From: a candidate division FCPU426 bacterium
GTDB lineage: Bacteria; Oederibacteriota; Muellerivitia; Muellerivitales; Muellerivitaceae
DNA: 64,000 bases
Assembly: GCA_030041545.1 (NCBI GenBank)
Contig: JASHNQ010000050.1
Location: 22,374 to 86,373, forward strand
Direction of reading: 5' to 3'
This document shows positions 3,433-55,269 of the stretch, in pieces (the first letter of the stretch is position 1; every line of letters begins with the position of its first letter). Position numbers and translations under genes: made by a program. The notes beneath the pieces were generated by a model that was not told the origin of the DNA, searched no databases, and saw only the letters and a program-made list of their open reading frames with translations.

Positions 3433-3558
3433 AGTTCCCTCGAATCGTTTCAAATGCTTTTCCCACCCCACCCACACCCGCTGAAACCGCATCAAGCTTT
3501 GATTAACGGCCCGGTTGGATTTAACATAGAGCTAGGAACTTTTGGAAAAGGGGGAACC

Positions 3559-4158
3559 ATGAAAGCAAGAATACGTCCGTGGATGGCCGTGGTTTTTATC
3601 CTGGCTCTGGGGATTCCGCTCCGTGTCCTGGCCGATGACGACAACCGCGTCATCGCCAAGTTCGACCAAAACAGGCCCCAGGACGCCTTGAGCGCGGCTT
3701 CGGTCTATCTTACCTTGAAGGGCGACCAGGCGGAGGGCCTTCCGGCCCTTGCCTCGGGCGACGAAACCCGTTTTTACATCAAGGTTTGGGACGGCCTCTA
3801 CCTGCAAATCACGACCGAAACGGGCGACAACGGCACCCGGGGTTATATGTTCGCCTTTTCCAGTGACGAAGCGGGCCAGGACCTCCTCCCACCCAAGGAA
3901 AACGCCGATGACCCTGCCCTGCGGGAACTCGCCGCCAGTGATTTCCGCACCGACGACAACTTCGAACCCCGGCCCCTGGTTCCGGGACCCGGAACGCCGG
4001 ACAACCGTGGCCCCTACCGGATCATCCATTACCCCGGCTTTGACGTGGATATGCGGGTCTTGGAATTCAGCATCGGTGACGCCCAATTGGGGAAAAAACC
4101 CTTTTTCAAGTCCGTGTCCTGCCTAGTCACGGTCCAAGAGGTCAAGAAAAAACACTAA
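3559..4158 (+). CDS. secreted hypothetical protein
   Basis: Start reassigned to the internal ATG (MKARIRPWMAVVFILALGIPLRVLADD signal peptide), which is preceded by AAAAGGGGGAACC. Confidence 0.55.
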   Translation: MKARIRPWMAVVFILALGIPLRVLADDDNRVIAKFDQNRPQDALSAASVYLTLKGDQAEGLPALASGDETRFYIKVWDGLYLQITTETGDNGTRGYMFAFSSDEAGQDLLPPKENADDPALRELAASDFRTDDNFEPRPLVPGPGTPDNRGPYRIIHYPGFDVDMRVLEFSIGDAQLGKKPFFKSVSCLVTVQEVKKKH

Positions 4159-6689: not shown

Positions 6690-7097
6690 TTAATTCGCGG
6701 CCAAACCGGCCGTTTTCCCGTTCGCCTGGAGCCGAACCGTCTTCACCAAATCTTCCCATTTCAAGCCGGTTTTCGGTAGGAAGGCCCGCGCGCCCATTTG
6801 GAGGGCCGAGGAAACAAATCGTTCATCGAAAAAAGAGCTCATGGCGATGACGGGAACGCCGGGATGGGCCTTCGCCATCCGGGAAACACCCTCCAATCCT
6901 TCGACGTCGGGCAGGAAAAGGTCCATCAAGACGGCATCCACCGGATGCGAAACCATCTCGTCGAGGGCGCCTTGGATGCTGGAAGCATGGAGCAGCTGAA
7001 ATTCGCCGTTCCCATAAAGTTTGAACGCTTCCTCGGCCAAGCGCACATCGCCTGGATTGTCTTCCACTAAAAGAACTTGCCGGACTTTAAGGGCCAT
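6690..7097 (-). CDS. single-domain response regulator (CheY-like receiver)
   Basis: VLLVEDNPGDV...VDAVLMDLFLPD receiver motifs; start placed at MALKV, preceded by CAGGGGGAA. Confidence 0.7.
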   Translation of the reverse strand: MALKVRQVLLVEDNPGDVRLAEEAFKLYGNGEFQLLHASSIQGALDEMVSHPVDAVLMDLFLPDVEGLEGVSRMAKAHPGVPVIAMSSFFDERFVSSALQMGARAFLPKTGLKWEDLVKTVRLQANGKTAGLAAN

Positions 7098-7228
7098 GGG
7101 TTCCCCCTGATTTTTAATTTTCCTGGGCACCATTAAAGGCTGCGCGAAAGCCTTATTTCAACCTGTCTCCGAAGATTTTCAGGAGCATCGGGCATATTTC
7201 ACTACCTATGCGGGAATCCTCCGGGAAC

Positions 7229-9007: not shown

Positions 9008-9132
9008 GGGAATCGGCCTCCGGGATGCGGTTGGATTGTAATGGGAGCGCCATGGTACATGGATTCGGCGTGGAATACGACAAGAAGCGATGGGGGGTAG
9101 TGCATCAGTTTCGTTTCAACAAAAATCTCAGA

Positions 9133-9222
9133 CACCCCTCACCCTACCCTCTCCCCCAAGGGGCGAGGGTTTTTGCGGGTATTTCCCCCTCTCCCTTGAG
9201 GGGAGAGGGAGGGGTGAGGGTG
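9133..9222. repeat. GGGGAGAGGG-core palindromic repeat, copy A (modules X-Y)
   Basis: cacccctcaccctaccctctcccccaaggggcgagggt ... ccccctctcccttgaggggagagggaggggtgagggtg. The same modules recur near 43.3, 46.2, 51.6 and 61.4 kb. Confidence 0.7.
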
Positions 9223-9297
9223 AAGTTGGATTAGGTCATTCAAACTGAGACACTACCCGATCGAGAGGTTAAACTCCCGGAAACTGTTTAAATACGT

Positions 9298-16409: not shown

Positions 16410-16446
16410 GTTTTCTCTCCTTGTTAAGAACCCTAACAAAAATACA

Positions 16447-16575
16447 AACGCTTACCACAAAGTTCACGAAGGACACAAAGTGAAGCATGGAAACGTCGGG
16501 AAAACCTAAGGTTTTTAACTTCGTGTCCTTTGTGCCGATTCACCTTGTGGTGAGCGTTTTTGGTTAGGGACTCTA
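16447..16575. repeat. compound palindromic element P1 (CACAAAGT-family arms within ctaacaaaaa-type outer inverted repeats)
   Basis: cttaccacaaagttcacgaaggacacaaagt ... aacttcgtgtcctttgtgccgattcaccttgtggtgagcg tttttggttagggactc; near-identical reverse-complement copy at 18876..19000. Confidence 0.7.
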
Positions 16576-17544
16576 AGAAAGTTCTTCGCGGGTCACGACC
16601 CGGGGATCGTCATAAAAAGCTCGGATTTCCTCCGGCGTATTCTCCCTTTCCAGGTAGTCGCACCAGATCATGAACCAGGCCCAGCGGGGCTGGCGCTTCA
16701 ACAAGCCGGGGGCGGGCACCTTCCCGATCTCCCCCAAGGCCACGGGCTTTCCCTCCGCCACGGCCAGCAGTTCCTCGTAATGCCGGTCCTGGAAGTCCCC
16801 CTTGTAAACATCCGTGGCCAGGATGTCCACGTAAGCGTGGCCCGGGTAGTAGTCGCGGTAGGGGCCCGCGTTTCCCTCGTCGTTCACCTTGTTGGCGTTC
16901 CATACCCACAGCAGGTTGTTCAAGCCGTATTTCTTCGTGAAAACCTCGATCATCAGGCGGTAGAGCGCCTGGGCGCCGCGGGGGCCGGGGCGGCCGCCCC
17001 ACCAAAACCAGTCACCGTTCCCCTCATGGTAGGGCCTCCAAAGGACGGGGACGCGGGCGTCCCGCAGCTTGGTCAGATGACCCGCCACCACTTTCAAATG
17101 CCTCAGCCAGCGGTTGTGGAGCGGCGTCCCGGGTATGGTCAATTCCCTCCACTCGAGGTCGGTCAGCTTGTTCTGGACGCTTTCCTTCCAGCCATTAGGT
17201 TCCTCGTCCGTGGGCCTCACCGCGTGCCACATGAGGGTGATGATATTCCCCTCCCGGTGGCGCTTAATGGCTTCCTCCATATTGGCCTCGCGGTTCCAAA
17301 CAGCGTCCTTGTCCTCCAACCCGGCCGTGAAGCCGAAATCCTGCCCCCAAATGGCCGGGTAACGGCCGGTGATCCCGCTGGCCTTCTCCGAGTAGCCGGA
17401 ATGGAAGCCGGGGTAGTTGTGCTGGCCCGACAGGGTCTTTTGGCCGGAAATGGAATAAAGATATTCGAGGAGCTTTCGGGCCTCGGGCGAGGCTTGGGGG
17501 TTGACGGGTTCCAAAGACATAAGAGGCCTCAATTGATCCCTCAT
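16573..17544 (-). CDS. glycoside hydrolase family 26 (beta-mannanase-like)
   Basis: WHAVRP and RPYHEGNGDWFWWG GH26 signature motifs; no obvious signal peptide; start could alternatively be the MSLEP ATG at 17520. Confidence 0.8.
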   Translation of the reverse strand: MRDQLRPLMSLEPVNPQASPEARKLLEYLYSISGQKTLSGQHNYPGFHSGYSEKASGITGRYPAIWGQDFGFTAGLEDKDAVWNREANMEEAIKRHREGNIITLMWHAVRPTDEEPNGWKESVQNKLTDLEWRELTIPGTPLHNRWLRHLKVVAGHLTKLRDARVPVLWRPYHEGNGDWFWWGGRPGPRGAQALYRLMIEVFTKKYGLNNLLWVWNANKVNDEGNAGPYRDYYPGHAYVDILATDVYKGDFQDRHYEELLAVAEGKPVALGEIGKVPAPGLLKRQPRWAWFMIWCDYLERENTPEEIRAFYDDPRVVTREELS

Positions 17545-18198: not shown

Positions 18199-18645
18199 TT
18201 AATTCTGCGCCACGGACCGGTTGACCTGCTTGCGTTCGAAAAAGACCTTGCGGAATTCCTGGGCGACGGCCGAGTTCCTCATGAGGACTTCCTCGAAATG
18301 GATCCGGTTCAGCACGAAAAGTGCGGTGTCTTCCTCGGCCACCACGGAAGCGTTGCGGGGTTCTTGGGAAATGAGCGCCATTTCGCCGAAGAACTGGTCG
18401 GGGAAAAGTTCCGCTACCTTGGCCGTGCGGAAGCCCTTTTTGACCCACACCGAAACCCGCCCCGAGGCGATCAGGTAAAGGGAAAGCGCCGGGTCCCCCT
18501 GCCGGATGATGGGATTTCCCTTGGGGACCTTTTGGGTCCGCATGTACTTGGCCAACACATCCAGCTCGAACATTTTCAGGGACTGCAGGATATTGTTCTT
18601 GCGCAAAATACGGCCCAGGCGGGCAATACTGAAAGCATCTTCCAT
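18199..18645 (-). CDS. cyclic nucleotide-binding domain protein
   Basis: cNMP-binding motifs IIRQGDPALSLYLIASGRVSV...FGEMALIS; start set at MEDAFS, preceded by GGAGGA. Confidence 0.7.
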   Translation of the reverse strand: MEDAFSIARLGRILRKNNILQSLKMFELDVLAKYMRTQKVPKGNPIIRQGDPALSLYLIASGRVSVWVKKGFRTAKVAELFPDQFFGEMALISQEPRNASVVAEEDTALFVLNRIHFEEVLMRNSAVAQEFRKVFFERKQVNRSVAQN

Positions 18646-18875
18646 CTTCGTCCTCCAGGAAAAATACGGGATTTGACCTAAAGCCGGTGGGTTCAACCGG
18701 CGCAAGGCGCTCGAGGCTTCAACCTGGATTTTGAATTGAATTGGGGGAAAGAGAAGCGGGGACAGCCGCTGGAAATGACGTCGACTGGGCATGATTCTAC
18801 CTTAAAAATTGGGAAACGCAAGGGCCAAAAGCCGGCGATGAAAGCGTTTTGATGGGCATTTAGAGTCCCTAACCA

Positions 18876-19000
18876 AAAATGCTCACCACAAGGTGAATCG
18901 GCGCAAAGGACACGAAGTTAAAAACCTTAGGTTTTCCCGACGTTTCCATGCTTCACTTTGTGTCCTTCGTGAACTTTGTGGTAAGAGTTTAGAGCGAAGG
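18876..19000. repeat. compound palindromic element P2 (reverse-complement copy of P1)
   Basis: gagtccctaaccaaaaatgctcaccacaaggtgaatcggcgcaaaggacacgaagtt...cactttgtgtccttcgtgaactttgtggtaagag, which is the reverse complement of 16447..16575 with a few substitutions. Confidence 0.7.
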
Positions 19001-19055: not shown

Positions 19056-20348
19056 CTAATTCTTCCGCCATTCCAGGAAACTGCGGTAATCCATGGTCAC
19101 CTGGTCGGCATAGGCGTGCGCGATGACCTGGAGCATGGAAACGAATTTCCTCTCCCGCCCTTTCAGCCGCTTCCAGGCCTTGCGGGCGAAATGCTCGCGG
19201 GCCCGGCAATGGGCCCGGGCCAGCGCCCCGCCCATTTGGCTCGCCACTCCCGCGTCCACCTTGCGGTAGGGCAGGGCGGCCTTGTAGGGCGACCTCTCCC
19301 GCACGCAATACTCCCCCTCTTTGAGCTTAAGCCATCCCAGCCAGGGGTCCGCGTCGCGGCCCAGGGCTTGGTAGGCCAGCACCACCCTCAAGGCGTGGTT
19401 TCCCCCGCAAGCCTCCTTGGTCTTTTGCTTGGCCCTCTTGGGAAGGTAGGGCCAGGGGCTGGGTTTGGGCTGGAACTTGACGTCCAGGATGCGGTAATTC
19501 CACTTGCCGCCCGACTCCACCTCCACCAGCGCGTAGTAACGGTTGAACCCATAGGAGCCCACGCCCTGGTGCAGCCGAAGCGCGATGTCCTTCACCTCGA
19601 AAAAGCCGATCTGTTTGACGGGCCAGGGCTTGAGCTGCTCCGCGTAGTCCCCCAGGGCCTCGCGCAGGGCCGGCTCCATGCCCGGCGCCACCGTGTCCAG
19701 GTCGGTTTTCCCGCGGTTGAAGGCGAAATCGTCCCCCGCCTCCACGCACCAGCGCTCCAGCATGCGGGCGCGGCCCTGCTTGGATTGGACGTGCTCCAGG
19801 AAATGCTTGAGGGCCCCGTGGGCGCTTTTGCGGTCGAGGGCCTCGCGGGCCCCCTTGGGGTCCTTGGCCAGGCGTCCCACCTCCCGGAAGTATCCCTTGG
19901 CGCAGGCCTTGACCAGGACCCTGCGGTGGTGGGGCTTCATCCGGTTTTCCCGCGCCAACAGGTTCAGGCTCACCACCAGCCGCCAGAGGTCGAACTGGTA
20001 ATCGGCGATGACCGATTCGTCGAAATCGGTCACGTCGTACACCAGCCGGCCTTTGGCGTCGGTGAAGGCGCCGAAATTGCCGCAGTGCATGTCCCCGCAC
20101 AGCCAGGTGCGCGTGCCGTTCTTGCCGCCGAAGGCCTTGGCCAGGTGGGCGCCGCCGAAGTCGGCCCAAAACAGGTGGGCCGTGCCGCGCAGGAACACGA
20201 AGGGCGAAAGGGCCATTTCCTTGAACTTTTCCTCGCGCCGGATGGGCAACAGTTCCTTGTTGAAGAGGGCGACCTGTTCCCTCACCCACTCGGGGCGGGG
20301 TTGGGGAAAAAGCAGGTCGGCTTGGGGGTTCACGAAGGATTTCGACAT
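19056..20348 (-). CDS. DUF2252 domain-containing protein
   Basis: 431 aa resembling DUF2252 proteins (recognised from memory; not confirmed). Start set at the MSKSF ATG. Confidence 0.6.
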   Translation of the reverse strand: MSKSFVNPQADLLFPQPRPEWVREQVALFNKELLPIRREEKFKEMALSPFVFLRGTAHLFWADFGGAHLAKAFGGKNGTRTWLCGDMHCGNFGAFTDAKGRLVYDVTDFDESVIADYQFDLWRLVVSLNLLARENRMKPHHRRVLVKACAKGYFREVGRLAKDPKGAREALDRKSAHGALKHFLEHVQSKQGRARMLERWCVEAGDDFAFNRGKTDLDTVAPGMEPALREALGDYAEQLKPWPVKQIGFFEVKDIALRLHQGVGSYGFNRYYALVEVESGGKWNYRILDVKFQPKPSPWPYLPKRAKQKTKEACGGNHALRVVLAYQALGRDADPWLGWLKLKEGEYCVRERSPYKAALPYRKVDAGVASQMGGALARAHCRAREHFARKAWKRLKGRERKFVSMLQVIAHAYADQVTMDYRSFLEWRKN

Positions 20349-20447
20349 TTTGGCTCCAGGAAGCGGCCCTTGGAAATAAGGATAGTTCAAAAGGCGGATG
20401 GTAGAAGCCGCTTTTTTTGTGGACGGTTTGGCCTTTGGGGGATCCCT

Positions 20448-20915
20448 TCAACCCAGCAGGTCGGGGTCCAACAGCCAGCGAAGGGTCCACGAGCCCGGCT
20501 TCCCCGCCCTTTCCAAGCAGGCCACGCTTCCCTTGGGAAAATCCACGAAGTCCGCGCCCCCGCCGCCCGAGAGAAGTTCCGAGGCCAGGCGCCCCAGGAA
20601 GGGTTGGTGCCCCACTAGCATCAGGTCCTTGTCCATGGCCGAGAGCTGTTTCCGGAAGGCGCCGGTGGATTGGCCCGGCCCCAGCCCGCGGAATTCCCTC
20701 AGCGCCTTCTTGCGGCCCAAGGCCTTGGCCAAGCCCTTGGCGGTTTGGGCGGCCCTCTTCAAGGGACTGTGCCGGATTTCAAAGCCATCCAAGCCCAACT
20801 CGCGGAGGCATGTTCCCACGAGCTTGACTTCCTTGCGCCCGGCCTTGTTCAAGGGCCTTTTGGCGTCGGGCACACCGTCTTTGGCCGTACCGTGACGGAC
20901 TAAATAGAGCCTCAT
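20448..20915 (-). CDS. sixA: phosphohistidine phosphatase SixA (histidine phosphatase superfamily)
   Basis: MRLYLVRHG catalytic motif; ATG preceded by GAAGGAGG. Confidence 0.7.
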   Translation of the reverse strand: MRLYLVRHGTAKDGVPDAKRPLNKAGRKEVKLVGTCLRELGLDGFEIRHSPLKRAAQTAKGLAKALGRKKALREFRGLGPGQSTGAFRKQLSAMDKDLMLVGHQPFLGRLASELLSGGGGADFVDFPKGSVACLERAGKPGSWTLRWLLDPDLLG

Positions 20916-20960
20916 AGTCAACCTCCTTCTTGCGCCTTACCCCGTCCTTTTTTGGAAAAC

Positions 20961-22823
20961 CTATGGGCCGCCCGCCTTTTTATGGAGCATTTGGCGCGTG
21001 GCTTCCAGGATGCGGGCCACCGGCTTTCGCCGGTAGTCCCACCGGGGATCGGGGCCGGGCGGGGTGACGTTCATGCAGGCATTGGCTTCGTAAAGCAGCA
21101 GGTTGCCTTCCCCGTCCAGGCCGAAATCAACGCCAGCGTAATCGAGGGCCAATTGGTCCCGGATAGCCTCCAGGGCCCGGAAGGCCCGTTCCCCGATGGC
21201 GGACCTCGTGTCGCCAAGGAATGCCTGGTCCTCAGCCCGGTTTTCAGGGTGGTCGTCCATGTCGGCGGTGAAATAATGCACCTTCCAATCCCCGGAGAGG
21301 GCCAAGTGGGCCGGGTAAAGTTCCCCGCCGATCATCATGACCCGGTATTTCCGCGTCTTCCCGTCCTTGCCCCGGCCGTCCAGGTAACGCAGGACGGTCA
21401 GCACTGATCCGGGAAGGGACGCCACCGCCAGGGCCAGGTCCTTTTCGTTGGAAACCAGGCGGAAATAACGGCCCAAGTGGTATCCCGGCGAGCGCAGGAG
21501 GAACGGATAGGAAAACCCCCTCCTGGCGACTTCGGTGTAACCGTCCGGTTTCGCCAGCAGCTCCTTGGGCAGGTTGACGATGTCGGGGGTGACGACGCCC
21601 TTAATCCCTCGCAGGCGCACCGCGTTTTCGGCGCGGCCCGTGGCCAGCACCCGGGAAGGCGGGTTGACGACGGGCGCCCTCGACCGGGCCAGGATGGTTT
21701 GGACGGCGCGCAGGGCGGGGCGGCAAAGGTCGGCCTCCCCGACGCAGTTGACCGCCAGGCGGTGCGGGGGAAGGGGCTGGGTGGGGTCGTAAAAATCGGT
21801 CACAATCACGGAGGGAAGGAAAGTCCCGTCGTCCATCATTTTGAGGAAGGGACCGTTGTTGTCGAACGTGGAGGTTAAGAGAAGCACCGGCAAAGGCCGG
21901 GGTTCGCCGCGCCGGGGCTTGGCCCCGGCCGCCGTGTCCCCGGGAGGCCCGCCTTCCGGAGGCGGCAGGAGGGACAGGGCCTGGCGGGCCTCTGGACAAT
22001 CGGCCTGAAGTTCCAGGACCTTCGCGTACTGGGCGCGAGCCGCCTCGGTCTTTCCTTTTTCCCGCAGCAGGCCGGCCAGGGTCAAATGTCCCTGGACGTT
22101 TCCGGGGTGGTGCCTCAGCGCCTCGGGGAGGGCCAACAGGAAAAACCCATCGGGATCGTCCGTCTTTCCCGGCAGGGAGGGCGAAAGTTCCAGGACCCGC
22201 CCATAGGCCAGCCGCGCTTCATCGTCCCGGCCCAGTTCCTTAAGCAGTCGCGCCCGGTAAAAATGGGCTTCCACGTCGTCGGGGGACGCCCTCAGCCGTG
22301 CGTCCGCCTCCTCGAGGGCCGCCAGCCGCGACACCCGCAGCATTTCCTTCGTCGCCTCCGATACGGCTTCAAACCGTTGCCGGGCGGCCGCCGGGTCCTC
22401 GGGCTTTAATTGCACGTTGGAAAGCCGGCGCAACCGCCCCAAAAGCACCTGCCGCCTGACCGCGAAGGCCAGCCTGCGCCCAAGGGAATCCGCGTCCCTG
22501 TCCATCTTGGTCAGGCAGTCCACGGCGCCATCCTGCAGGGCGCGGAAGGACAACTTGACATCCTTGTCCGTGAGGACGATGGAAGGCGCCCCTGGGGCCA
22601 AGGTTTGGACTTCCAGGAAAAAGGGGAGGCTGTCCTGCCCGGGCAGGTCCACGGCGATGAAGTCGGGGGCCCTTTCCCCGATGGCCCGCCGGACGTCCTC
22701 CAGGCCTTGAAGGTGGAGGAATTCCACATCCTCGTCCCTGATCCGGGAAAGGACCTCTTTCCAAAAATCGGCGTCGCGTCCGCTTTCCTGGAGGAAATAG
22801 CACCGAATGGGGCTTGCGTTCAT
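20961..22823 (-). CDS. receiver (REC) + TPR + ATP-grasp (RimK-like) fusion protein, paralogue 1
   Basis: N-terminal CheY-like domain with acceptor context PDFIAVDLPG; central TPR repeats; C-terminal ATP-grasp motifs YRVMMIGGELYPA...VDFGLDGEGNLLLYEANACM. Confidence 0.7.
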   Translation of the reverse strand: MNASPIRCYFLQESGRDADFWKEVLSRIRDEDVEFLHLQGLEDVRRAIGERAPDFIAVDLPGQDSLPFFLEVQTLAPGAPSIVLTDKDVKLSFRALQDGAVDCLTKMDRDADSLGRRLAFAVRRQVLLGRLRRLSNVQLKPEDPAAARQRFEAVSEATKEMLRVSRLAALEEADARLRASPDDVEAHFYRARLLKELGRDDEARLAYGRVLELSPSLPGKTDDPDGFFLLALPEALRHHPGNVQGHLTLAGLLREKGKTEAARAQYAKVLELQADCPEARQALSLLPPPEGGPPGDTAAGAKPRRGEPRPLPVLLLTSTFDNNGPFLKMMDDGTFLPSVIVTDFYDPTQPLPPHRLAVNCVGEADLCRPALRAVQTILARSRAPVVNPPSRVLATGRAENAVRLRGIKGVVTPDIVNLPKELLAKPDGYTEVARRGFSYPFLLRSPGYHLGRYFRLVSNEKDLALAVASLPGSVLTVLRYLDGRGKDGKTRKYRVMMIGGELYPAHLALSGDWKVHYFTADMDDHPENRAEDQAFLGDTRSAIGERAFRALEAIRDQLALDYAGVDFGLDGEGNLLLYEANACMNVTPPGPDPRWDYRRKPVARILEATRQMLHKKAGGP

Positions 22824-23049
22824 TTGGACCGCTCCGGTCCGCCGGCCAAAGGCGGTTTTCAGGTAACAATCATGTTTCGACGGGCGAGAATGGAAAAACC
22901 GCCCGGAAAAACGTCATTTTACCTTGGAGCGGGAAGAAAGGGATCGCGGGTTGGGCCGGTCTCAATAACTCTTTTAGGGAGATGTGGGACATCGGATTTG
23001 ATCGGCGGTTGAGTCTTTTTTGTTTACTTATTTTTAGGAGATAATCACC

Positions 23050-25137
23050 ATGTTTACCTGCCAAACGCTATATCGGGAAAAGCGTTTGGTGCAACTCGAC
23101 AACGCGAACATGGGTAAGCGGCTTCATTTTGGGGGCCAACCACCCGCGTCTGGGGATGGCGCTTGGGCCGGGTCCAAGCCAGGTAAGGGTTCCACTTTTG
23201 GGGGAACTGGCCAGCCGGACGGGTTTGGCGAGGCGGAAATCATCGAAATCCTCAACAGGCTCAAAACGAAACGGGAACCATCCTTCCCCGCCCTTTCTTC
23301 CATCCCGTCATGGGAGCCGGTAGGGGCTGCCTGCTTTCTCTTGGTTTCGGCGGTTTTCCTCTTTTATCTTCCCGTCTTAAGGAACCCCTTCGTCAACTGG
23401 GACGACATGGATTGCATCGCGGGCAACCCCCACCTCCGCCGCTTGGATATTCAAAACCTGTCATGGATGTTGACGACCTACTACTCGGGGAATTGGCTGC
23501 CGCTGACTTGGCTTTCTTTCGCGATGGATTACCTCTGGGGCGGGCTGGATCCCCGGGCTTACCACGCCACGAACGTCGTCCTCCACGGCCTTAATACCCT
23601 CCTTGTTTTCCTTGTTTGCCGGAAAATCCTCGAACAGGCGGTGGACGGAAAAAAGGAGGATGCCGGCCCCAAAGTCCCCGCTTATCCGGCGGCTTTCCTG
23701 GCGGCCCTTTTATTCGGGTTGCACCCCATCCACGTGGAGTCCGTGGCTTGGGCCGCCGAGCGAAAGGATGTGCTTTACGCTTTTTTCTACCTGGCGGCCA
23801 TGGGGCTTTATCTCCAGGGCCCCTCCCCACTGGATTGGAAAAAACCCAAGCCCTGGGCCTTGTTGGGGCTTTACTCGCTGGCCCTGATGTCCAAACCCAT
23901 GGCCGTCACCCTTCCCTTGGTCTTTTTAATCCTGGATTATTGGCCGCTGGCGCGCCCCTCAACGGACGGCTTAAAACCCCTCGCCGAAAAAGCGCCCTTT
24001 TTCGCCTTGGGCCTAGCGGACGGGCTGGCGGCGATCCAATCCCACGGAAGCGCGATCGTATCCACCGGCGGCTCGGCCCAGGTCCTATGGTCGTTCAACG
24101 CCTTTCGCGCCCCGGTCTTTTATCTGTGGAAAATGGCCGTGCCCCGCCACCTGGTTCCGTTGTACCCCTTCCCCCCCGGGACCAACCCCGCGTTCCAATG
24201 GGAATCCTACGCGGCCGCACTGCTGGTGGCCGGGACCGCCGCCGTCCTCTACCGTTTCCGAAAGCAAATCCCTTATGCCGCGGCCGCGGGGCTGTACTAC
24301 CTGGCGACCCTGGCGCCTGTTTTGGGTTTCCTGCAAATCGGAAGCCAGGCGGCGGCGGACCGTTATACTTACCTTCCCAGTTTGGGCGTCTTCCTTCCTT
24401 TTTCCGCCGGCGTGGCGTTCCTGCTGCGCAGGCGCCGGTGGGCGCTGGGATTTCTCACGGCCCTTTTGGCCTTGGCGCTGGGGCTGGCAACCATGGCCCA
24501 AATCAGCCTTTGGAGAAATTCGGAAATCCTTTGGGAAAGCGTGGTTCGGGCCTATCCCGGCTGGTCATCGGTGGCCTATACCTACTTGGGCGTCACCTAC
24601 ACGCGGGAGAAAAAATGGCCGCAAGCCCAGGCGGCGCTGCGGCAGGCCCTTTCCATTCCCCCTCCCCTGGCCGTCACCCACCAGGCTTATGGCCTCCTTC
24701 TTCTTTATTTAGGGAGGTTGGACGACGCCATCGGTGAATTCAAGGAAGCCCTTGCGCTCAACCCCGAATTCGTCCTGGCTTACCAAAACCTATGGGTGGT
24801 CTATGAGCACCTGGGAAGGCATGGGGAAGCCCTGGCCCAGATCAAGGAGGCGGTCCGGCTGGAGCCCCAAAACGCGGATTTTACCCGCGATATGGGGGAA
24901 AGCAACCTGGCATTGGGGCGCTATGGGGAGGCGGAGACGGCCTTTCAACGGGCCCTGGAGCTGGACGCCCATTCCGCGCAGAGCCTGGTGGATTTGGCAA
25001 CGCTTCGCCTCCAACAAGGCCGCCCCGGGGAAGCCCGGGGCTTGCTCAAGGCCGCGTCGGCCTTGAACCCCCAGGACCCCCGGACCCTCCGGGAAATGGA
25101 GGAGGATTCCCAAAAAGCCGGCCCTGCCACCCGCTGA
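23050..25137 (+). CDS. TMTC/PMT-like (GT39-type) integral membrane glycosyltransferase with C-terminal TPR repeats
   Basis: Multiple TM helices; NPFVNWDDMDCIAGNPHL motif (DUF1736/TMTC-like); C-terminal TPR array; AGGAGA 8 nt upstream of ATG. Confidence 0.65.
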   Translation: MFTCQTLYREKRLVQLDNANMGKRLHFGGQPPASGDGAWAGSKPGKGSTFGGTGQPDGFGEAEIIEILNRLKTKREPSFPALSSIPSWEPVGAACFLLVSAVFLFYLPVLRNPFVNWDDMDCIAGNPHLRRLDIQNLSWMLTTYYSGNWLPLTWLSFAMDYLWGGLDPRAYHATNVVLHGLNTLLVFLVCRKILEQAVDGKKEDAGPKVPAYPAAFLAALLFGLHPIHVESVAWAAERKDVLYAFFYLAAMGLYLQGPSPLDWKKPKPWALLGLYSLALMSKPMAVTLPLVFLILDYWPLARPSTDGLKPLAEKAPFFALGLADGLAAIQSHGSAIVSTGGSAQVLWSFNAFRAPVFYLWKMAVPRHLVPLYPFPPGTNPAFQWESYAAALLVAGTAAVLYRFRKQIPYAAAAGLYYLATLAPVLGFLQIGSQAAADRYTYLPSLGVFLPFSAGVAFLLRRRRWALGFLTALLALALGLATMAQISLWRNSEILWESVVRAYPGWSSVAYTYLGVTYTREKKWPQAQAALRQALSIPPPLAVTHQAYGLLLLYLGRLDDAIGEFKEALALNPEFVLAYQNLWVVYEHLGRHGEALAQIKEAVRLEPQNADFTRDMGESNLALGRYGEAETAFQRALELDAHSAQSLVDLATLRLQQGRPGEARGLLKAASALNPQDPRTLREMEEDSQKAGPATR

Positions 25138-25178
25138 TGGGTTGGGAAAGTACAAGCCTTGAGGGGTGACTCCGCGAC

Positions 25179-27041
25179 CTATGGGCCGGCCGCCCTTTGA
25201 TGGAGCATTTGGCGCGTGGCTTCCAGGATTCGGGCCACCGGCTTTCGCCGGTAGTCCCACCGGGGGTCGGGCTCGGGAGGGGCGACCGTCATGCAGGCAT
25301 TGGCTTCGTAAAGCAGCAGGTTGCCTTCCCCGTCCAGGCCGAAATCAACGCCCGCGTAATCGAGGGCCAATTGGTCCCGGATAGCCTCCAGGGCCTGGAA
25401 GGCCCGCTCCCCGATGGCGGACCTCATGTCGCCAAGGAAAGCCTCGTCCTCGGCCCGGTTTTCAGGGTGGTCGTCCATGTCGGCGGTGAAATAATGCACC
25501 TTCCAATCCCCGGAGAGGGCCAAGTGGGCCGGGTAAAGCTCCCCGCCGATCATCATGACCCGGTATTTCCGCGTCTTCCCGTCCTTGCCCCGGCCGTCCA
25601 GGTAACGCAGGACGTTCAGCTCCTTTCCGGGAAAGGACGCCACCGCCAGGGCCAGGTCCCTTTCATTGGAAACCATGCGGAAATAACGGCCCAGGTGGTA
25701 GCCCGGTGAGCGCAGCAGGAAGGGATAGGAAAACCCCCTCTGGACGACTTCGGCGTAACCGTCCGGTTTCGCCAACAGGTCCTTGGGCAGGCTGACGATG
25801 TCGGCAGTGACGACGCCCTTAATCCCACGCAGGCGCACCGCGTTTTCGGCGCGGCTGGTGGCCAGCACCAAGGAGGGCGGGTTGACGACGGGCGCCTTGG
25901 ACCGGGCCAGGATGGCTTGGGCGGCGCGCAGGGAGGGGCCGCAAAGGTCCGCGTCCCCGACGCAGTTGACCGCCAGGCGGTGCGGGGGGAGAAGCTTGTC
26001 GGGGTCATAAAATTCGGTCACGATCGCCAAGGGGAGGAAGGTCCCGTCGCCCAGCATTTGGTACAAGGGACAATTGCCGTCGAGCGTGGTTAACAACAGC
26101 ACCGGCAAAGGCCGGGGTTCGCCGCGCCGGGGCTTGGCCCCGGCCGCCGTGTCCCCGGGAGGCCCGCCTTCCGGCGGCGGCAGGAGGGCCAGGGCCTGGC
26201 GGGCCCCTGGACAATCGGCCTGAAGTTCCAGGACCTTCGCGTACTGGGCGCGAGCCGCCTCGGTCTTTCCTTTTTCCCGCAGCAGGCCGGCCAGGGTCAA
26301 ATGTCCCTGGACGTTTCCGGGGTGGTGCCTCAGCGCCTCGGGGAGGGCCGACAGGAAAAACCCGCCGGGATCGCCTGTCGTTCCCAACCAGGAAGGCGCA
26401 AGTTCCAGGACCCGCCCATAGGCCAGCCGCGCCTCATCGTCCCGGCCCAGTTCCTTAAGCAGTCGCGCCCGGTAAAAATGGGCTTTCACGTCGTCGGGGG
26501 ACGCCGCCAGCCGCGATTCCCTCTCTTCGAGGGCCGCCAGCCGCGTCACCCGCATGGTTTCCTTCGCCGCCTCCAATACGGCCTCCCTCCATTGCCGGGC
26601 GGCCGCCGGGTCCGCCGGCCTCGCTTCTGGGGTGTAAAGCCGGTACAAACGCCTCAAAAGGACCTGCCGCCGGGCCCAAAGGGCCAGCCTACGCCCAAGC
26701 GAATCCACCTCCCCTTCCCCCATGACCAGGCAGTCCTCGGCGCCCTCCTGTCGGACGTGGAAGGACAACTTAGGATCGCCATTTTCCGTGACGGCGATGA
26801 AAGGCGACTCGGGGGCCAAGGTTTGGACTTCCAGGAAAAAGGGGAGGCTTTCCTGCCCGGACAGGTGCACGGCGATGACGTCGGGGGTCCTTTCCCCGAT
26901 GGCCCGCCGGGCATCCTCCAGGCCTTGGAGGTGGGGGAATTCCATGTCCTCGTCCCTGATCCGGGAAAGGACTTCTTTCCAAAATTCGGTGTTGCGTCCG
27001 CTTTCCTGGAGGAAATAGCACCGAATGGGGTTTGCGCGCAT
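25179..27041 (-). CDS. receiver (REC) + TPR + ATP-grasp fusion protein, paralogue 2 (acceptor Asp replaced by His)
   Basis: About 95% nucleotide identity to 20961..22823 over most of its length; N-terminal region diverged (PDVIAVHLSG instead of PDFIAVDLPG); start set at MRANPIRCYFL by homology to paralogue 1. Confidence 0.7.
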   Translation of the reverse strand: MRANPIRCYFLQESGRNTEFWKEVLSRIRDEDMEFPHLQGLEDARRAIGERTPDVIAVHLSGQESLPFFLEVQTLAPESPFIAVTENGDPKLSFHVRQEGAEDCLVMGEGEVDSLGRRLALWARRQVLLRRLYRLYTPEARPADPAAARQWREAVLEAAKETMRVTRLAALEERESRLAASPDDVKAHFYRARLLKELGRDDEARLAYGRVLELAPSWLGTTGDPGGFFLSALPEALRHHPGNVQGHLTLAGLLREKGKTEAARAQYAKVLELQADCPGARQALALLPPPEGGPPGDTAAGAKPRRGEPRPLPVLLLTTLDGNCPLYQMLGDGTFLPLAIVTEFYDPDKLLPPHRLAVNCVGDADLCGPSLRAAQAILARSKAPVVNPPSLVLATSRAENAVRLRGIKGVVTADIVSLPKDLLAKPDGYAEVVQRGFSYPFLLRSPGYHLGRYFRMVSNERDLALAVASFPGKELNVLRYLDGRGKDGKTRKYRVMMIGGELYPAHLALSGDWKVHYFTADMDDHPENRAEDEAFLGDMRSAIGERAFQALEAIRDQLALDYAGVDFGLDGEGNLLLYEANACMTVAPPEPDPRWDYRRKPVARILEATRQMLHQRAAGP

Positions 27042-27140
27042 TTTGAGCGTTCCGGTCCGCCGTTGAGGGTGGTTTTCAGGTAACATCCATGTTTCGGGAA
27101 ACCGCCCTGGAAAACCTTATTTTACTTTCCGGCAAGAGGA

Positions 27141-27587
27141 CTAGGACGGAAAATCTCCGATCCACCTGAGGGCCACCGGAGCGCCCTTGAGCCGCTTGAG
27201 GAGTTTTTGGTCCGCAGTCACCAGGGGCGCCTTCAGTTCCTCGGCCAGGGCCAGGTAGCAGGCGTCATAGGCCGTCACTTCCCATTCAAGGGCCAGGTCC
27301 AGGGCCCGGGGCGCCAGCAGGGCGGTGGAAACGGCCTTCAACCCCAACTGCCGCAAGGCGGAAATGTCCTTGAGGGCGTCCGAGGGGGAATAACCCGAAT
27401 GGCGGACATATTTCCAAAGGATATTAGCGCACTCCGCGTAGAACAGGTCGGGAACATGGGGCTGGAAATGGGGTTCCCCCCCAATGGCCTGGAAAAGCGT
27501 TTTAGCCTGGGGCGAATGTTCCTCCGCCACAAAAAGCTTGGCCCCCACGCTGGCGTCCACCACTAGATGGGGCGGGAGGCCGCTCAC
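27141..27587 (-). CDS. vapC: type II toxin VapC (PIN domain ribonuclease)
   Basis: PIN-domain acidic residues (LVVDASV...AYDACYLALAEEL...VTAD); overlaps the upstream antitoxin gene by 4 nt. Confidence 0.75.
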   Translation of the reverse strand: MSGLPPHLVVDASVGAKLFVAEEHSPQAKTLFQAIGGEPHFQPHVPDLFYAECANILWKYVRHSGYSPSDALKDISALRQLGLKAVSTALLAPRALDLALEWEVTAYDACYLALAEELKAPLVTADQKLLKRLKGAPVALRWIGDFPS

Positions 27588-27832
27588 CGTCCCCTGTCTT
27601 CCCTCAAAAGGTCCAAGCTGGTGGGAGCCCCTGGTTTCAGTTTCCGCTTGGCCCTTCGTTTGAGGATTCCATCAAGGGCCTTCTTATGGTTGTAAACGGC
27701 CTGTTCCTCATGCACGGCGTTGCCCAGCAAATGGACGACTTCCGAGTTGAAGGAACGGCTTTGTTCCTCGGCTAATTTTTTGATGTCCCGGTAAAGTGGC
27801 TCAGGGACGTTTCGCACGTGTAAGATCGGCAT
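27584..27832 (-). CDS. vapB: ribbon-helix-helix antitoxin (VapB/FitA-like)
   Basis: MPILHVRNVPEPLYRDIKKLAEEQSRSFNSEVVHLL RHH fold; ATG preceded by AAGGAGA. Confidence 0.65.
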   Translation of the reverse strand: MPILHVRNVPEPLYRDIKKLAEEQSRSFNSEVVHLLGNAVHEEQAVYNHKKALDGILKRRAKRKLKPGAPTSLDLLREDRGR

Positions 27833-28020
27833 GGCGTCTCCTTTCCTGGAAGTTAGGGCCATTATCGGGGGTTTGGTTGCATTATGCAACCAGGAAGAGG
27901 GCCCGCCGATCGCGCATGGGAAATCAACGGCAAAAGATGTTTTGGGCCAAGAGGATTATCTTATTTCTTTTTTCAGGCCCGACCCTTTTCCCCCGCCTTG
28001 AGGAGCGAGGCTGAGCCCTT

Positions 28021-28392
28021 TTATTGGCTCTCGCCGCCGGGGGTGCCGTGATAAAGGCCGGTGGTCAGGAACCAGCCGCTGACCGTGGCGCCCGCGGAAT
28101 TCACCCCGGTCTGCTGGTTCAAATCGTAGTGGTACACCGGAACCCCGCCACTGTAGGGCGTCACGGTGGTCTCACCCCCACAGGCATAACGGATTTCGGG
28201 AACAAATAAAATTACCTGTAATCCCCAACCATGATCCATGGATTGGGGCGTATCAAACCCCAGTACCTCCGACCCGGTATCCAAACGGCCGGCGGAATAC
28301 GCCAAATCCGGGAATTGGCCCTCCAGGACAGGTTTTACAGCCTCCTGAAAAAATCCCTCGCAAAGCCGCATCCCTTTTTCAAACCTCGGCAT
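28021..28392 (-). CDS. hypothetical protein with degenerate minimal nucleotidyltransferase-like motif
   Basis: GSEVLGFDTPQSMDHG resembles the GS..G....SD.D MNT motif with substitutions; AGGGAG RBS present; possibly a truncated remnant. Confidence 0.4.
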   Translation of the reverse strand: MPRFEKGMRLCEGFFQEAVKPVLEGQFPDLAYSAGRLDTGSEVLGFDTPQSMDHGWGLQVILFVPEIRYACGGETTVTPYSGGVPVYHYDLNQQTGVNSAGATVSGWFLTTGLYHGTPGGESQ

Positions 28393-28439
28393 TTTGGCTC
28401 CCTGAAAACTACCTGTTCTACGACTTTTCCTGTAGAGTA

Positions 28440-29310
28440 GGGCACTGGCGCATATGCGTTAGAATCCGGTGGCTTTTCCAACCCTTTAGGATTGGGCCTC
28501 AGTCCGGCTTTCTTGGCTATGTTTCCAGCGCCCCCTCATCAGTACGTGACCTTTTCGATCATACGGCTTTCCGACAACCTTTCCTCCGTCGGCTTTGCGG
28601 GTTCTGCTTTCTCTTGGCCGCTCGGCATAGTTCTTGTTGAAGATTACGCGCTTTTGTCCTTCAGAGTTGTTAGCCGTTTCCGGCATTCTCCAGCGCCACC
28701 CTTCTTGAATGCACGTGGTTGAAGCAGGGGACCTTCCCTCGGGAGAGGTTTTGTTGTCCTCCCCCTCTAAGCGGTACTATTTCCCCCTCCGACTTCCTCC
28801 CGTCACGCCTCCCTTTCGGTCGCCCTTATAGGAGCCGCTCTTTTAACGGGTAGGATCTCCCAGGTTGATGCATGAGCCTTTTCAGCGTTCCGCTCCCCAT
28901 ACGCCGGAGGATTTGCCTCACCCAATCCTGTTTCAGGGTGAGATTGTTGCCTTCGCCGGTGGACACGCGGCTCGGCCTCCCCTGTAGCCTTTCGGCGGAC
29001 TCTTCACGACGCGGCAGGATTCACTTCATGTTGCGGACTGCGGAGTTGTTCCCTTCCTTTCGAAGGTTTATGACCTCGTTTCGGACAAAGCCTCTCGACT
29101 TTGCCACGGAGGCTGACTTCGGGGCCCTCAGGCGGTTACCCCGTCAGGACTTGGTCCATATCGAACCTCACCTGCTGGCTACTGCACCCTTGTTCCTGGC
29201 ACACTGTCCACGACGGGTCCCAATCGTGGACACTCAAAATCAGCTGTACCTTTTTACAACTTCCTCCGTCTCTTTTGAGGCTCATTCCCATCAATAGCTA
29301 TTTTCCAAAT
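28440..29310 (-). other. ORF-free, lower-GC region; candidate structured RNA or degenerate group II intron fragment (unresolved)
   Basis: ~0.9 kb with only short low-complexity ORFs; plus strand pyrimidine-rich, so the minus transcript would be purine-rich; reverse complement of ~28548..28582 reads AAGCCGUAUGAUCGAAAAGGUCACGUACUGAUG, partly matching the group II domain V consensus GAGCCGUAUGCGAUGAAAGUCGCACGUACGGUUC. Confidence 0.3.
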
Positions 29311-29312
29311 AT

Positions 29313-31570: not shown

Positions 31571-31672
31571 CCTCACCACGAAGTACACGAAGACCACGAA
31601 GTAAAATCAATGTTGTTCAATACATTTTCGACCTACTTTGTGTACTTTGTGCCCTTTGTGGTAAGAGTTTTA
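31571..31672. repeat. compound palindromic element P3 (CACrAAG tandem-unit arms)
   Basis: cctcaccacgaagtacacgaagaccacgaagt ... actttgtgtactttgtgccctttgtggtaagag, in the lpxK-waaA intergenic gap. Confidence 0.7.
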
Positions 31673-31687
31673 GTTTTGAGACAGCTT

Positions 31688-34956: not shown

Positions 34957-36156
34957 TCACGGGAGCGCGGCTTTCTTTTCTTCCAGGAGTTGCCGATACC
35001 ACTGGAGGTGCCGCTCCACCCAGGGTTCCAGGCTGAAACGCAGCGCTATTTTACGGGTTTCCCGCCGGAATTTCGCCATTAAAGCTTTAGACCCTAAAAC
35101 CTTCTCCAAAGCGTTCGCCCATTCCTGGGGATCGTCCGTGTCAAGCACCAAACCGCCTTGGGCCTTGCCGGGCTTTGACTCGAGTATCTCCGCCAATCCT
35201 CCGCCCCGGCGCGCGACCACCGGCCGGCCGCAGGCCATGGCTTCCACCACCGCCATGCCGAAGGATTCGGCCTCGGCCGCGTGCACCGCCAAATCCAACG
35301 CGGAAAGGAAACCGGCCACATCCTGAACGTAACCTTCATAGATGAACGCCTTTTCAATCCCCAGCTTCTTACGGAGGTCCAGGCACCGGTCGAAATACCA
35401 TTTTTCGTCGAGAGTATGTTTTCCGATGACCCTGAAGCGCACTTTCGGCCTTTGGGCGATCAGCTTGGCGGCGCAACGCAGCAAGAGTTCGTGGCCTTTG
35501 CCGGGTGTGACGCGGGAAACCATGCCGATCACCTCGTTCGGGCCCCAACCCCAGGCTTTCCGGAGCCTCTTGCGGGCGTCCGCCTTGAGCCGGAACTCCC
35601 GGAGGTCCACCGGCATGAAGGAGGTTTGGACCTTTTCCGGCTCAACAGGACAGGTTTCAACGACGTTTTGCCGGATGAATTCGGAACAGGTAAGCAAAAG
35701 GTCGACTCGTCCGTAAAGCCGCCGGTGGAGCAAGTCCTTTTTAGCGACGCCGGAAGCCACGTGTTTGGTGAGGAAGAGAGGCCCCTTCCAGCCCGCGAGG
35801 GCCAAGGCGGGAACCACCGACCACAAATCCTTCGTGTGGTGGAGGTGAATCACGTCCGGCGCCTCTTTCCGGAGGGCCTTCAGGATTTCCAGTGCGCTGG
35901 GAGGGCTGAAATGTCCGTGGAAGTGGAAAGCCTCGGTCAAAAGGCCCGCTTCCTGGGCTTTTTTCCCTAGGAACGAGCCGGGGTCGGCCCAAATGGAAAC
36001 TTCGTGTCCCTTTTTCCGCAAGGCCCGGGCCAGCAGGAGGGGGGCCAGTTCCCGGCCTCCCTCGCCCCGGGATGCGAGCGCTTGGACGATGCGGTAGCGG
36101 GAATGACGGTTCACGAAAACCCCTGGGCGCGGATTAAAAACATTTAACAAAACCAT
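34957..36156 (-). CDS. glycosyltransferase family 4 (GT-B fold)
   Basis: C-terminal GT4 motif ...ESFGMAVVEAMACGRPVVA. Confidence 0.75.
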   Translation of the reverse strand: MVLLNVFNPRPGVFVNRHSRYRIVQALASRGEGGRELAPLLLARALRKKGHEVSIWADPGSFLGKKAQEAGLLTEAFHFHGHFSPPSALEILKALRKEAPDVIHLHHTKDLWSVVPALALAGWKGPLFLTKHVASGVAKKDLLHRRLYGRVDLLLTCSEFIRQNVVETCPVEPEKVQTSFMPVDLREFRLKADARKRLRKAWGWGPNEVIGMVSRVTPGKGHELLLRCAAKLIAQRPKVRFRVIGKHTLDEKWYFDRCLDLRKKLGIEKAFIYEGYVQDVAGFLSALDLAVHAAEAESFGMAVVEAMACGRPVVARRGGGLAEILESKPGKAQGGLVLDTDDPQEWANALEKVLGSKALMAKFRRETRKIALRFSLEPWVERHLQWYRQLLEEKKAALP

Positions 36157-36159
36157 AAA

Positions 36160-36256
36160 CTCTTACCACAAAGTTCACAAAGGACACAAAGTAAAGACTC
36201 ATTCTTTGGAAAAATCATCGGTTTTACTTCGTGATCTTCGTGTACTTCGTGGTGAG
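36160..36256. repeat. compound palindromic element P4 (CACAAAG tandem-unit arms)
   Basis: ctcttaccacaaagttcacaaaggacacaaagt ... acttcgtgatcttcgtgtacttcgtggtgagaaa. Confidence 0.7.
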
Positions 36257-43146: not shown

Positions 43147-43282
43147 AATTTCCCTTTTTCGTCATCGCAGGGGGGGGCCGCAAAACCCGGCGCGGCGACC
43201 CAAAACAATCGAAAAACGGCCGCCGGTGGAATGATTTGGATGGCTTCGTCGGGCTAAAAGCCCCCTATGAAACAACCCCAGG

Positions 43283-43366
43283 CACCCCTCATCCCCCCCT
43301 CTCCCCCAAGGGGCGAGGGTGACGAGTACCCCTTCTCCCTTGAGGGGAGAAGGATGGGATGAGGGT
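43283..43366. repeat. GGGGAGAGGG-core palindromic repeat, copy B (modules X-Y)
   Basis: cacccctcatccccccctctcccccaaggggcgagggt gacgagta ccccttctcccttgaggggagaaggatgggatgagggtg. Confidence 0.7.
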
Positions 43367-43426
43367 GATTTTTTCTGGTTCAAATCACCCGGCGCCTTCC
43401 GGCGGGCCCTGGCTCACAATGACGCC

Positions 43427-51010: not shown

Positions 51011-51040
51011 TTTGTGGTTCAATGCCTTTGAAAATAAAAA

Positions 51041-55267: not shown

Positions 55268-55269
55268 CC

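Follow-up and report, generated by a model that had tools for sequence, protein, structure and literature searches.

The locus studied here poses the question of whether three interleaved genes form a protein-modification system or simply lie side by side. It is located in a 64,000-nt stretch of DNA, hereafter the window, from an uncultured peat bacterium of candidate division FCPU426 (assembly GCA_030041545.1, contig JASHNQ010000050.1, positions 22,374 to 86,373 of the forward strand). Two similar genes, which we call copy 1 and copy 2, are each a single intact open reading frame (ORF) on the minus strand. From the N to the C terminus, both products comprise an atypical receiver domain, a long helical linker, about three tetratricopeptide repeats (TPRs), and an ATP-grasp domain. 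Between them lies the middle gene, which encodes a membrane protein with a GT-C fold and C-terminal TPRs (table 1). The explanation that best accounts jointly for the data, to which we give a probability of roughly 60%, is that the two copies are paralogous receiver–TPR–ATP-grasp ligase genes with a mosaic history and that the GT-C gene is incidental to them.

Two Paralogous Genes in Direct Repeat

By blastn, the copies form a direct repeat (20959..22879 and 25177..27096) with 89.5% nucleotide identity over 1,926 columns and eight gap openings. Global nucleotide alignment of the copies gives 89.2% identity, and the proteins are 81% identical. A preliminary description of this locus, made from the sequence alone, had reported near-identical regions of about 95% identity at ~20940..22935 and ~25170..27150 and had not stated the strand. 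The repeat is confirmed, and "near-identical" overstates it: 94–95% identity is confined to local 300-nt blocks. The window contains no other kilobase-scale repeat. The middle gene is divergent from copy 1, from which a 226-nt region separates it, and convergent with copy 2. For copy 2, we used the Met codon at 27041 as the start, as in NCBI; the ORF itself extends to 27086. Divergence between the two proteins is unevenly distributed, with 71% amino acid identity in residues 1–135, 84% in the TPRs, and 87% in the C-terminal domain, so that the receiver regions do diverge most, as had been noticed.

The similarity stops just past the stop codons. On the 5′ side, it extends about 100 nt beyond both start codons, as also described earlier, and includes a 13-nt indel. 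The distal part of this upstream region is common to the two copies only, and the proximal ~35 nt are also found in front of the genes for two relatives, P0004 and P0005. This leader (…CCTC-GCCGGCGGACCGGAGCGGyCmAAATG) is kept at 22824..22860 and 27042..27078 in the window, at ~3550..3584 in the P0004 locus (L083), and at ~95..128 in the P0005 locus (L084). It contains a likely GGAG ribosome-binding site within a short CCGG…CCGG palindrome. The shared leader has no match in Rfam, and scans for promoters and terminators gave chance-level results only.

An ATP-Grasp Domain Outside Curated Families

Identification of the C-terminal domain from sequence alone failed, the results being either swamped by the TPRs or empty, and structure prediction was needed. 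In an AlphaFold2 model built from 57 homologues (mean predicted local distance difference test score 86), this domain has the ATP-grasp fold, with an N-terminal α/β domain followed by the two α+β lobes that clasp ATP. Its closest solved relatives are LysX/ArgX and RimK. In an hhalign alignment with Escherichia coli RimK, whose probability is only 2.7%, D566, E579, and N581 align with the Mg ligands D248, E260, and N262, R444 lies opposite K141, and R494 lies opposite the Arg of DIRCLVVG. R444, R494, and the D566/E579/N581 triad are invariant in 57 sequences, both copies among them, and both copies keep all family-invariant ATP-grasp residues. The canonical ATP-binding Lys is replaced by the family-invariant R444 (LLRSPG.H.G), a conservative change. 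The earlier assignment of receiver, TPR, and ATP-grasp regions is therefore correct at the level of the fold.

Profile libraries agree with it in part. Full-length proteins searched against Pfam (E ≤ 0.1) matched TPR models and, below threshold, Response_reg, with no ATP-grasp model, and NCBIfam added nothing. The TPRs of the preliminary description are thus recovered, Response_reg is sub-threshold, and neither RimK nor any other ATP-grasp model gives a match above threshold. The ATP-grasp domain belongs to no curated Pfam or NCBIfam family.

A Receiver That Is Atypical throughout the Clade

The N-terminal domain has the (βα)5 receiver fold, and its best match among PDB sequences is the receiver and linker of DctD (phmmer, E = 7e-5). 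Copy 1 scores 19.3 bits on Response_reg and copy 2 scores 13.9, both below the gathering score of 30.2; a canonical stand-alone receiver encoded elsewhere in the window (6690..7133, minus strand) reaches 61.9 bits. As the preliminary description had noticed, copy 1 reads FIAVDLPG around the candidate phospho-acceptor D59 and copy 2 reads VIAVHLSG; the two codons, GAC and CAC, differ by one base. Both copies have T85, but only copy 1 has K106, Met taking its place in copy 2. Having lost both the Asp (to His) and the Lys (to Met), copy 2 would not be phosphorylatable in the canonical way. Judged from these residues, its receiver is a pseudo-receiver, and the loss of the β5 Lys makes the case stronger than was first claimed.

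The acceptor Asp has a patchy distribution among the relatives. The receiver-fused clade that includes the window proteins comprises eight sequences with 65–81% identity, a candidate division FCPU426 metagenome-assembled genome (MAG) being among their sources. Of six relatives, P0003 and P0004 have Asp at the acceptor position and the other four (P0005–P0008) have Gly. At the β5 Lys position, P0003 to P0007 have N, K, R, K, and K, respectively. Throughout this clade, Q12-E13 stands in place of the D-D pair after β1. Two receiver fusions outside the clade, P0246 and P0264, have V-E and A-E at these positions, respectively, and both keep the acceptor Asp. P0264, from a more distant cluster, scores 37.7 bits on Response_reg, above the threshold, and has both Asp and Lys. 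In copy 1, the β3-α3 loop is two residues shorter than in typical receivers. These comparisons indicate that the ancestral fusion probably had a working receiver, that the Asp has been lost at least twice since, and that the receiver is degenerating or atypical throughout the clade of the window proteins. Polarized by the Gly lineage, 16 derived receiver changes fall on copy 1 and nine on copy 2, suggesting that the Asp-bearing copy 1 is not simply the conserved one. The subfunctionalization after duplication that had been proposed is therefore too simple: Gly occupies the acceptor position in four of six relatives, Q-E is found clade-wide, both copies score below threshold, and the history of the pair is mosaic.

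Mosaic History of the Pair

Overall, dN/dS (the ratio of nonsynonymous to synonymous divergence) between the copies is 0.76, with a dS of 0.13. By region, it decreases from 1.6 in the receiver to 1.0 in the helical linker, 0.68 in the TPRs, and 0.50 in the ATP-grasp domain. In the linker, the most divergent segment, which forms helices 111–135 and 144–179 in the model, both dS and dN are 0.25. Neighbor-joining trees of residues 1–180 group copy 1 with P0003 (100% bootstrap) and copy 2 with P0004 (92%). For TPR residues 181–300, the two copies group together (99.8%), and the grouping in the ATP-grasp domain is unresolved. We also counted informative amino acid sites, in the order copy 1 = P0003 against copy 2 = P0004, copy 1 = copy 2 against P0003 = P0004, and other. 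The counts are 14:0:1 in residues 1–180, with the linker contributing 8:0:0, 2:6:1 in the TPR region, and 7:4:1 in the ATP-grasp domain. In the TPR region, the nucleotide quartets that include P0004 and an outgroup all pair the two copies (17:0:0).

The longest identical run between the copies lies in the TPR region and spans 143 nt. In 5,000 shuffles, the mean longest run was 51 nt and the maximum 119 (p ≤ 2e-4). Codons 240–269 show zero synonymous or nonsynonymous differences, and codons 270–299 show one synonymous and two nonsynonymous differences. Gene conversion thus appears to have homogenized the TPR region, and the ATP-grasp domain in parts, between the copies. The best reading is that two paralogue lineages would be older than the split from the P0003 genome and that gene conversion later took place between the tandem copies.

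A simple recent duplication of the whole gene was rejected as the whole story because residues 1–180 of copy 1 join P0003. The idea of copy 2 as a decaying pseudogene was also rejected, given its intact ORF and the retention of every invariant residue.

Proposed Function

Copy 1 is followed, on its own strand and after about 40 nt, by sixA, which encodes a phosphohistidine phosphatase and is also called in a second assembly of this region. It is probably co-transcribed with copy 1 and is the sole local hint of a phosphorelay.

We propose that both proteins are cytoplasmic ATP-dependent carboxylate–amine ligases. Each would convert a carboxylate into an acyl-phosphate for coupling with an amino acid or amine. 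The TPRs would pick the acceptor, most likely a peptide or protein tail, as RimK does with S6 and LysX with LysW. The receiver and helical linker may gate or dimerize the enzyme, in the manner of the DctD/NtrC1 receivers. Copy 1 would receive phosphorelay input, trimmed by the co-transcribed SixA, and copy 2, blind to the signal, would either be constitutively active or work together with copy 1 as its partner. The GT-C/TPR gene would be one member of a very large TMTC-like family, located there by chance. A bolder version, which we regard as speculative and unlikely to hold, is that receiver–TPR–ATP-grasp proteins constitute an unrecognized class of two-component output. They would be phosphorelay-gated RimK/LysX-like ligases extending TPR-bound protein tails, with the Asp59 copy, reset by SixA, and the pseudo-receiver copy heterodimerizing via their linkers.

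A Large Family with Rare Receiver Fusions

A homology search returned about 130 proteins, and a profile search of 1.84 billion representatives returned 1,403 clusters (at 50% identity) with E ≤ 1e-30. Most members consist of TPRs and an ATP-grasp domain, are 480–520 aa long, and come from Bradyrhizobium, Bryobacteraceae, Acidobacteriaceae, and similar soil and peat taxa. Those that have no receiver are annotated as "tetratricopeptide repeat protein" or, by the Joint Genome Institute (JGI), as "glutathione synthase/RimK-type ligase-like ATP-grasp enzyme". Our literature searches found no description of this TPR–ATP-grasp family. Some proteins, such as P0009 (903 aa) and P0242 (889 aa), carry two tandem TPR–ATP-grasp modules, as would suit an enzyme that works as a dimer.

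Receiver fusions are rare in the family. Beyond the clade of the window proteins, they form two 50%-identity clusters, P0246, on a 2.1-kb contig without gene context, and P0264. A metagenome scan yielded 80 family loci, none with a receiver, all matches beginning near residue 163. One FCPU426 MAG (GCA_030038835.1) carries both an Asp-bearing and a Gly-bearing protein, P0004 and P0005, on separate contigs (JASHQZ010000239.1, L083, and JASHQZ010000356.1, L084). Their surroundings are unrelated: the P0004 gene comes after a Kelch β-propeller gene and flbD, and the P0005 gene adjoins a glycogen phosphorylase gene. Several paralogues are therefore normal in this lineage; their tandem placement is not.

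The domains fused to other family members bear on the product. About 40 of 139 members (e.g., P0031) are 950–1,100 aa long with an N-terminal group II pyridoxal phosphate-dependent decarboxylase, whose weak best match is diaminobutyrate decarboxylase. One member, P0303 (655 aa), is fused to a thioesterase/α-β-hydrolase. In addition, serC (phosphoserine transaminase, NF003764, ~400 bits) adjoins the TPR–ATP-grasp gene in three loci, L168 (5786..9920), L034 (4668..5729), and L115 (9480..10541), and lies 6 kb away in a fourth, L002 (10001..19315). These observations would suit an enzyme making a small molecule, such as a dipeptide-like or amide metabolite, with the TPRs serving assembly or regulation only. 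We consider this possible but rather unlikely, since TPRs are found in nearly all family members examined and no biosynthetic cluster is conserved around the gene. L034 comes from a Thermodesulfovibrionales MAG, and in two of the loci serC lies beside receiver-less family members. In L168 and L002, serC has a TupA-like ATP-grasp gene as its companion, and the TupA-like genes of these two loci are 60% identical.

The Middle Gene Is Probably Only a Neighbor

The middle protein has the GT-C membrane fold and a C-terminal TPR array. In an alignment of its family, FVNWDD (D118, D119) and HPIHVESVAW vary little or not at all among 46 homologues. An acidic DD motif in the first loop and HPIH are hallmarks of the TMTCs (PMC7801869). 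Against Pfam (E ≤ 0.1), only TPR-type families matched, with no DUF1736, PMT, or PMT_2. The earlier view of a TMTC/PMT-like N terminus followed by TPRs hence holds for the fold, the DD and HPIH motifs, and the TPRs and not for the Pfam families DUF1736 and PMT_2. JGI calls it "protein O-mannosyl-transferase", a name assigned automatically. A search for its family gave more than 7,000 matches, with several paralogues per genome, and the nearest non-self homologue is 60% identical. By homology with the TMTCs, the catalytic loop and the TPRs are expected to face the periplasm (PMC7801869).

The preliminary description saw in the three genes a protein-modification module pairing ligases with an O-glycosyltransferase. 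Such a module would act twice on one target protein: the membrane enzyme would glycosylate it, and the ligases, controlled by two-component signaling, would amino-acylate it. The trio does not recur in the three loci that could be compared, two of them short. In these loci of close relatives, P0007 (21.8 kb), P0004 (6.1 kb), and P0005 (6.9 kb), the ligase gene is present in a single copy, and homologues of the middle gene, sixA, the DUF2252 gene, vapC, and the remaining window neighbors are all missing. Some features would agree with a module: the genes are physically interleaved, all three encode TPRs, copy 1 and the middle gene diverge from one short intergenic region, and genes for the lipopolysaccharide core and lipid A lie 2–9 kb off in the window. 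Moreover, a PMT_2/STT3 GT-C gene lies 1.9 kb from the P0007 gene, and TupA-like ATP-grasp genes occur near those for P0007 and P0264. Nevertheless, the best non-self homologue of the middle protein is more distant than the ligase relatives (60% against 69–81%), its family is huge with many paralogues per genome, 156 loci of the ligase family show no conserved partner, and the GT-C loop of the middle protein and its TPRs would be periplasmic, whereas ATP-grasp chemistry is cytoplasmic. A module is thus quite unlikely. The middle gene is probably just a neighbor and not an obligate partner, and the locus is not evidence for a new multigene modification system.

Past sixA lie genes for a DUF2252 protein (19056..20390) and a cyclic nucleotide monophosphate (cNMP)-binding protein (18199..18792). 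Directly upstream of copy 2, a VapBC-like pair (27141..27889, minus strand) encodes a PIN protein of 148 aa and a ribbon-helix-helix protein of 101 aa; about 100 nt separate the end of the PIN gene from the start of copy 2. A DUF1800/DUF1501 pair is found 26 kb from copy 2 (53249..56499, plus strand) and another directly upstream of the P0007 homologue (L002, 6101..9204).

The Duplication Is Real

The three proteins match P0241, P0121, and P0002 exactly, all on one 88,767-nt NCBI contig. A second assembly (GCA_030051685.1) contains a 5,114-nt contig, JASIPF010000404.1, that is 99.9% identical to positions 20301..25414 of the window. It covers 238 nt of copy 2 and breaks off in a stretch of near identity between the copies, as is typical where a repeat interrupts an assembly. 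Over this 238-nt segment, identity to copy 1 is only 94%, whereas the match to copy 2 is part of the full-length alignment at 99.9%. Since the second assembly carries copy-2-specific sequence beside the middle gene, both middle-gene junctions have been seen twice. The ~10% divergence, in-frame indels, intact frames, and family-invariant residues kept in both copies argue against duplication by the assembler.

That a metagenome assembler doubled one gene or joined two strains is very improbable, even though the sequence comes from a MAG, the second assembly breaks just where the copies are most alike, and the junction of copy 2 with the upstream vapBC pair is present in one assembly only, because the points just given are joined by a second MAG of the same phylum with two paralogues and by similar G+C content at third codon positions (GC3) throughout the region.

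Weighing the Interpretation

Several observations weigh against our interpretation. Sequence models do not detect the ATP-grasp domain: the RimK alignment has the low probability given above, and the C-terminal 315 residues, searched by profile against PDB sequences, gave nothing significant. Twenty-one C-terminal domains searched against Pfam gave only sub-threshold matches, to ATPgrasp_YheCD in 10 (best E 0.005), ATPgrasp_ST in eight, and RimK (PF08443) in two (best E 0.055). Because the ATP-binding Lys is Arg in this family, activity is only predicted. The fusions to amino-acid-metabolizing enzymes fit a small-molecule product equally well. Concerning regulation, copy 1 may itself carry a pseudo-receiver, given that its D-D pair lacks the first acidic residue, its β3-α3 loop is shortened, and its Pfam score stays below threshold. 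Of the ORFs scanned against Pfam and NCBIfam (most ORFs of at least 90 aa), none was recognized as a gene for a histidine kinase or HPt protein, and sixA was not found beside the relatives, whose flanks are short.

The mosaic history also meets conflicting signals. Nucleotide quartets of codons 1–180, with P0004 and an outgroup, split 8:8:2. Between the copies, receiver dS is low (0.10–0.16, against 0.30 for copy 2 and P0004) with a dN/dS of 1.2–1.6, and the pair may stem from a fairly recent duplication with fast protein divergence. From the low receiver dS and the distal upstream sequence common to the copies only, either conversion reached the 5′ end too or the duplication is fairly recent.

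When the neighboring genes of the 156 family loci were clustered, no conserved partner emerged; the best cluster is present in 24 loci, mostly Bradyrhizobium-like. Envelope-glycan genes do recur near relatives, with PMT_2/STT3, TupA-like ATP-grasp, and GT2 genes in L002 and a TupA-like ATP-grasp gene in L168. The P0007 gene has a PMT_2/STT3 GT-C, a TupA-like ATP-grasp, serC, and a GT2 gene within 2–7 kb, and the P0264 gene comes directly after a TupA-like ATP-grasp gene and serC. There may be a loose link to envelope glycans, but the signal is weak, a set of leads and not evidence for the module of the preliminary description.

The reading of two mosaic ligase paralogues beside an incidental GT-C gene nonetheless has some reach. 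The locus reveals a large family of soil and peat bacteria, combining TPRs and a RimK-like ATP-grasp domain, for which we found neither a curated model nor a study, and a rare subfamily of it has gained a receiver. To our knowledge, protein-modifying ATP-grasp ligases (RimK, LysX, tubulin ligases) are few, and we know of none under receiver control. We found no description in the literature of an architecture with a receiver and an ATP-grasp output. The Asp/His pair within one genome would be a natural experiment on phosphorylation control of such an enzyme, and the mosaic would be a clear small case of gene conversion between tandem paralogues with fast change of a regulatory domain. The novelty is modest but real: an uncharacterized ATP-grasp family, a rare receiver fusion, and a tandem Asp/His pair shaped by gene conversion.

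Other Features of the Window

The window has 58% G+C and the content of an ordinary bacterial chromosome, with trpE/G, hisD/hisC, aroA, pyrG, and lipid A and Kdo genes. A bacterial RNase P class A RNA lies at 51039..51506 (minus strand, 258 bits), and no tRNA gene was found in the 64 kb. Between vapBC and a heptosyltransferase gene, about 1.4 kb (27890..29312) has no convincing protein gene. It contains a match to group II intron domains D1–D4 (RF02003, 64 bits; 29026..29162, minus strand) with no reverse-transcriptase ORF, probably an ORF-less or decayed intron. A low-GC3 island (56512..58688, minus strand) between the DUF1501 and DAHP synthase genes encodes a ParA-like AAA_31 protein (GC3 0.32) and a Schlafen AlbA_2/HATPase_c_4 protein (0.28), other genes being mostly at 0.55–0.88, and was probably acquired horizontally. 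Dispersed intergenic repeats of 40–160 nt, similar to repetitive extragenic palindromic (REP) sequences or miniature inverted-repeat transposable elements (MITEs), occur in both orientations with 82–98% identity; one inverted pair (97.7% identity) flanks the GH26 and cNMP-binding genes. The edge of the window (3..1340, plus strand) carries a fragment of an abortive-infection-type AIPR protein.

Table 1. Coordinates of the Features of the Locus in the 64,000-nt Window
Feature	Position	Strand	Remarks
Copy 1 gene	20961..22823	−	620-aa receiver–helix–TPR–ATP-grasp protein, identical to P0241
Copy 1 receiver-like domain	22494..22823	−	Residues 1–110; Q12-E13, D59, T85, K106
D59 codon GAC	22647..22649	−	Candidate phospho-acceptor of copy 1; end of predicted strand β3 (E55-60)
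Copy 1 long helical linker	22284..22493	−	Residues 111–180; most divergent segment between the copies
Copy 1 TPR region	21954..22283	−	Residues 181–290; Pfam TPR_2, TPR_19, TPR_11; helical hairpins in the model
Longest identical tract	21992..22134		143 nt; probable gene-conversion tract in the TPR region; partner ~26207..26349
Copy 1 ATP-grasp domain (predicted)	20964..21908	−	Residues 306–620; R444, R491-K492, R494, D566, E579, N581
Copy 1 upstream region	22824..22925	−	Common with copy 2; TAAAAT box, then leader GCCGGCGGACCGGAGCGG ahead of ATG
Copy 2 gene	25179..27041	−	620-aa paralogue with putative pseudo-receiver, identical to P0002
His codon CAC	26865..26867	−	Acceptor position of copy 2; β5 Lys also Met (CLVMGE)
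Copy 2 upstream region	27042..27125	−	Homologous to the copy 1 upstream region
Middle gene	23050..25137	+	695-aa membrane protein, GT-C fold and C-terminal TPRs (TMTC/PMT-like)
sixA	20448..20921	−	Phosphohistidine phosphatase; TIGR00249 102.4 bits (cut-off 74.5), full length; Pfam His_Phos_1
Dispersed repeats, paired	16446..16576 and 18860..18990; 46116..46273 and 61388..61545
Dispersed repeats, others	9129..9257; 43279..43368; 51558..51663; 31572..31678; 36148..36256

Comparison with Known Systems

Compared with the DctD/NtrC1 receivers, that of copy 1 has Asp at the end of β3, Thr at β4, Lys at β5, and a long helix after the domain, as in dimerization-regulated receivers. It differs from them in the Q-E pair for D-D, the shorter β3-α3 loop, and the sub-threshold Pfam scores of both copies. 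Here, moreover, the output is a predicted ATP-grasp enzyme, and the acceptor Asp is missing in copy 2 and four relatives.

The middle protein shares with TMTC1-4 and PMT (GT-C, GT105/GT39) the DD in the loop after the first transmembrane helix and a C-terminal TPR array, and its HPIH resembles FAVHPIHT of human TMTC3. Unlike these proteins, it is bacterial and has no match to Pfam DUF1736 or PMT_2.

The C-terminal domain shares with RimK and LysX/ArgX the Mg-binding Asp/Glu/Asn triad, an RxxV..G strand matching DIRCLVVG of RimK, and presumably the acyl-phosphate ligation chemistry. In contrast, identity with them is only 11–13%, the Pfam RimK match is sub-threshold, Arg stands for Lys141, TPRs and a receiver are added at the N terminus, and no S6- or LysW-type partner gene lies nearby. 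The receiver-less TPR–ATP-grasp proteins of the same family also lack the long helix, and their TPR and ATP-grasp regions are 40–55% identical to residues ~163–620 of the window proteins.

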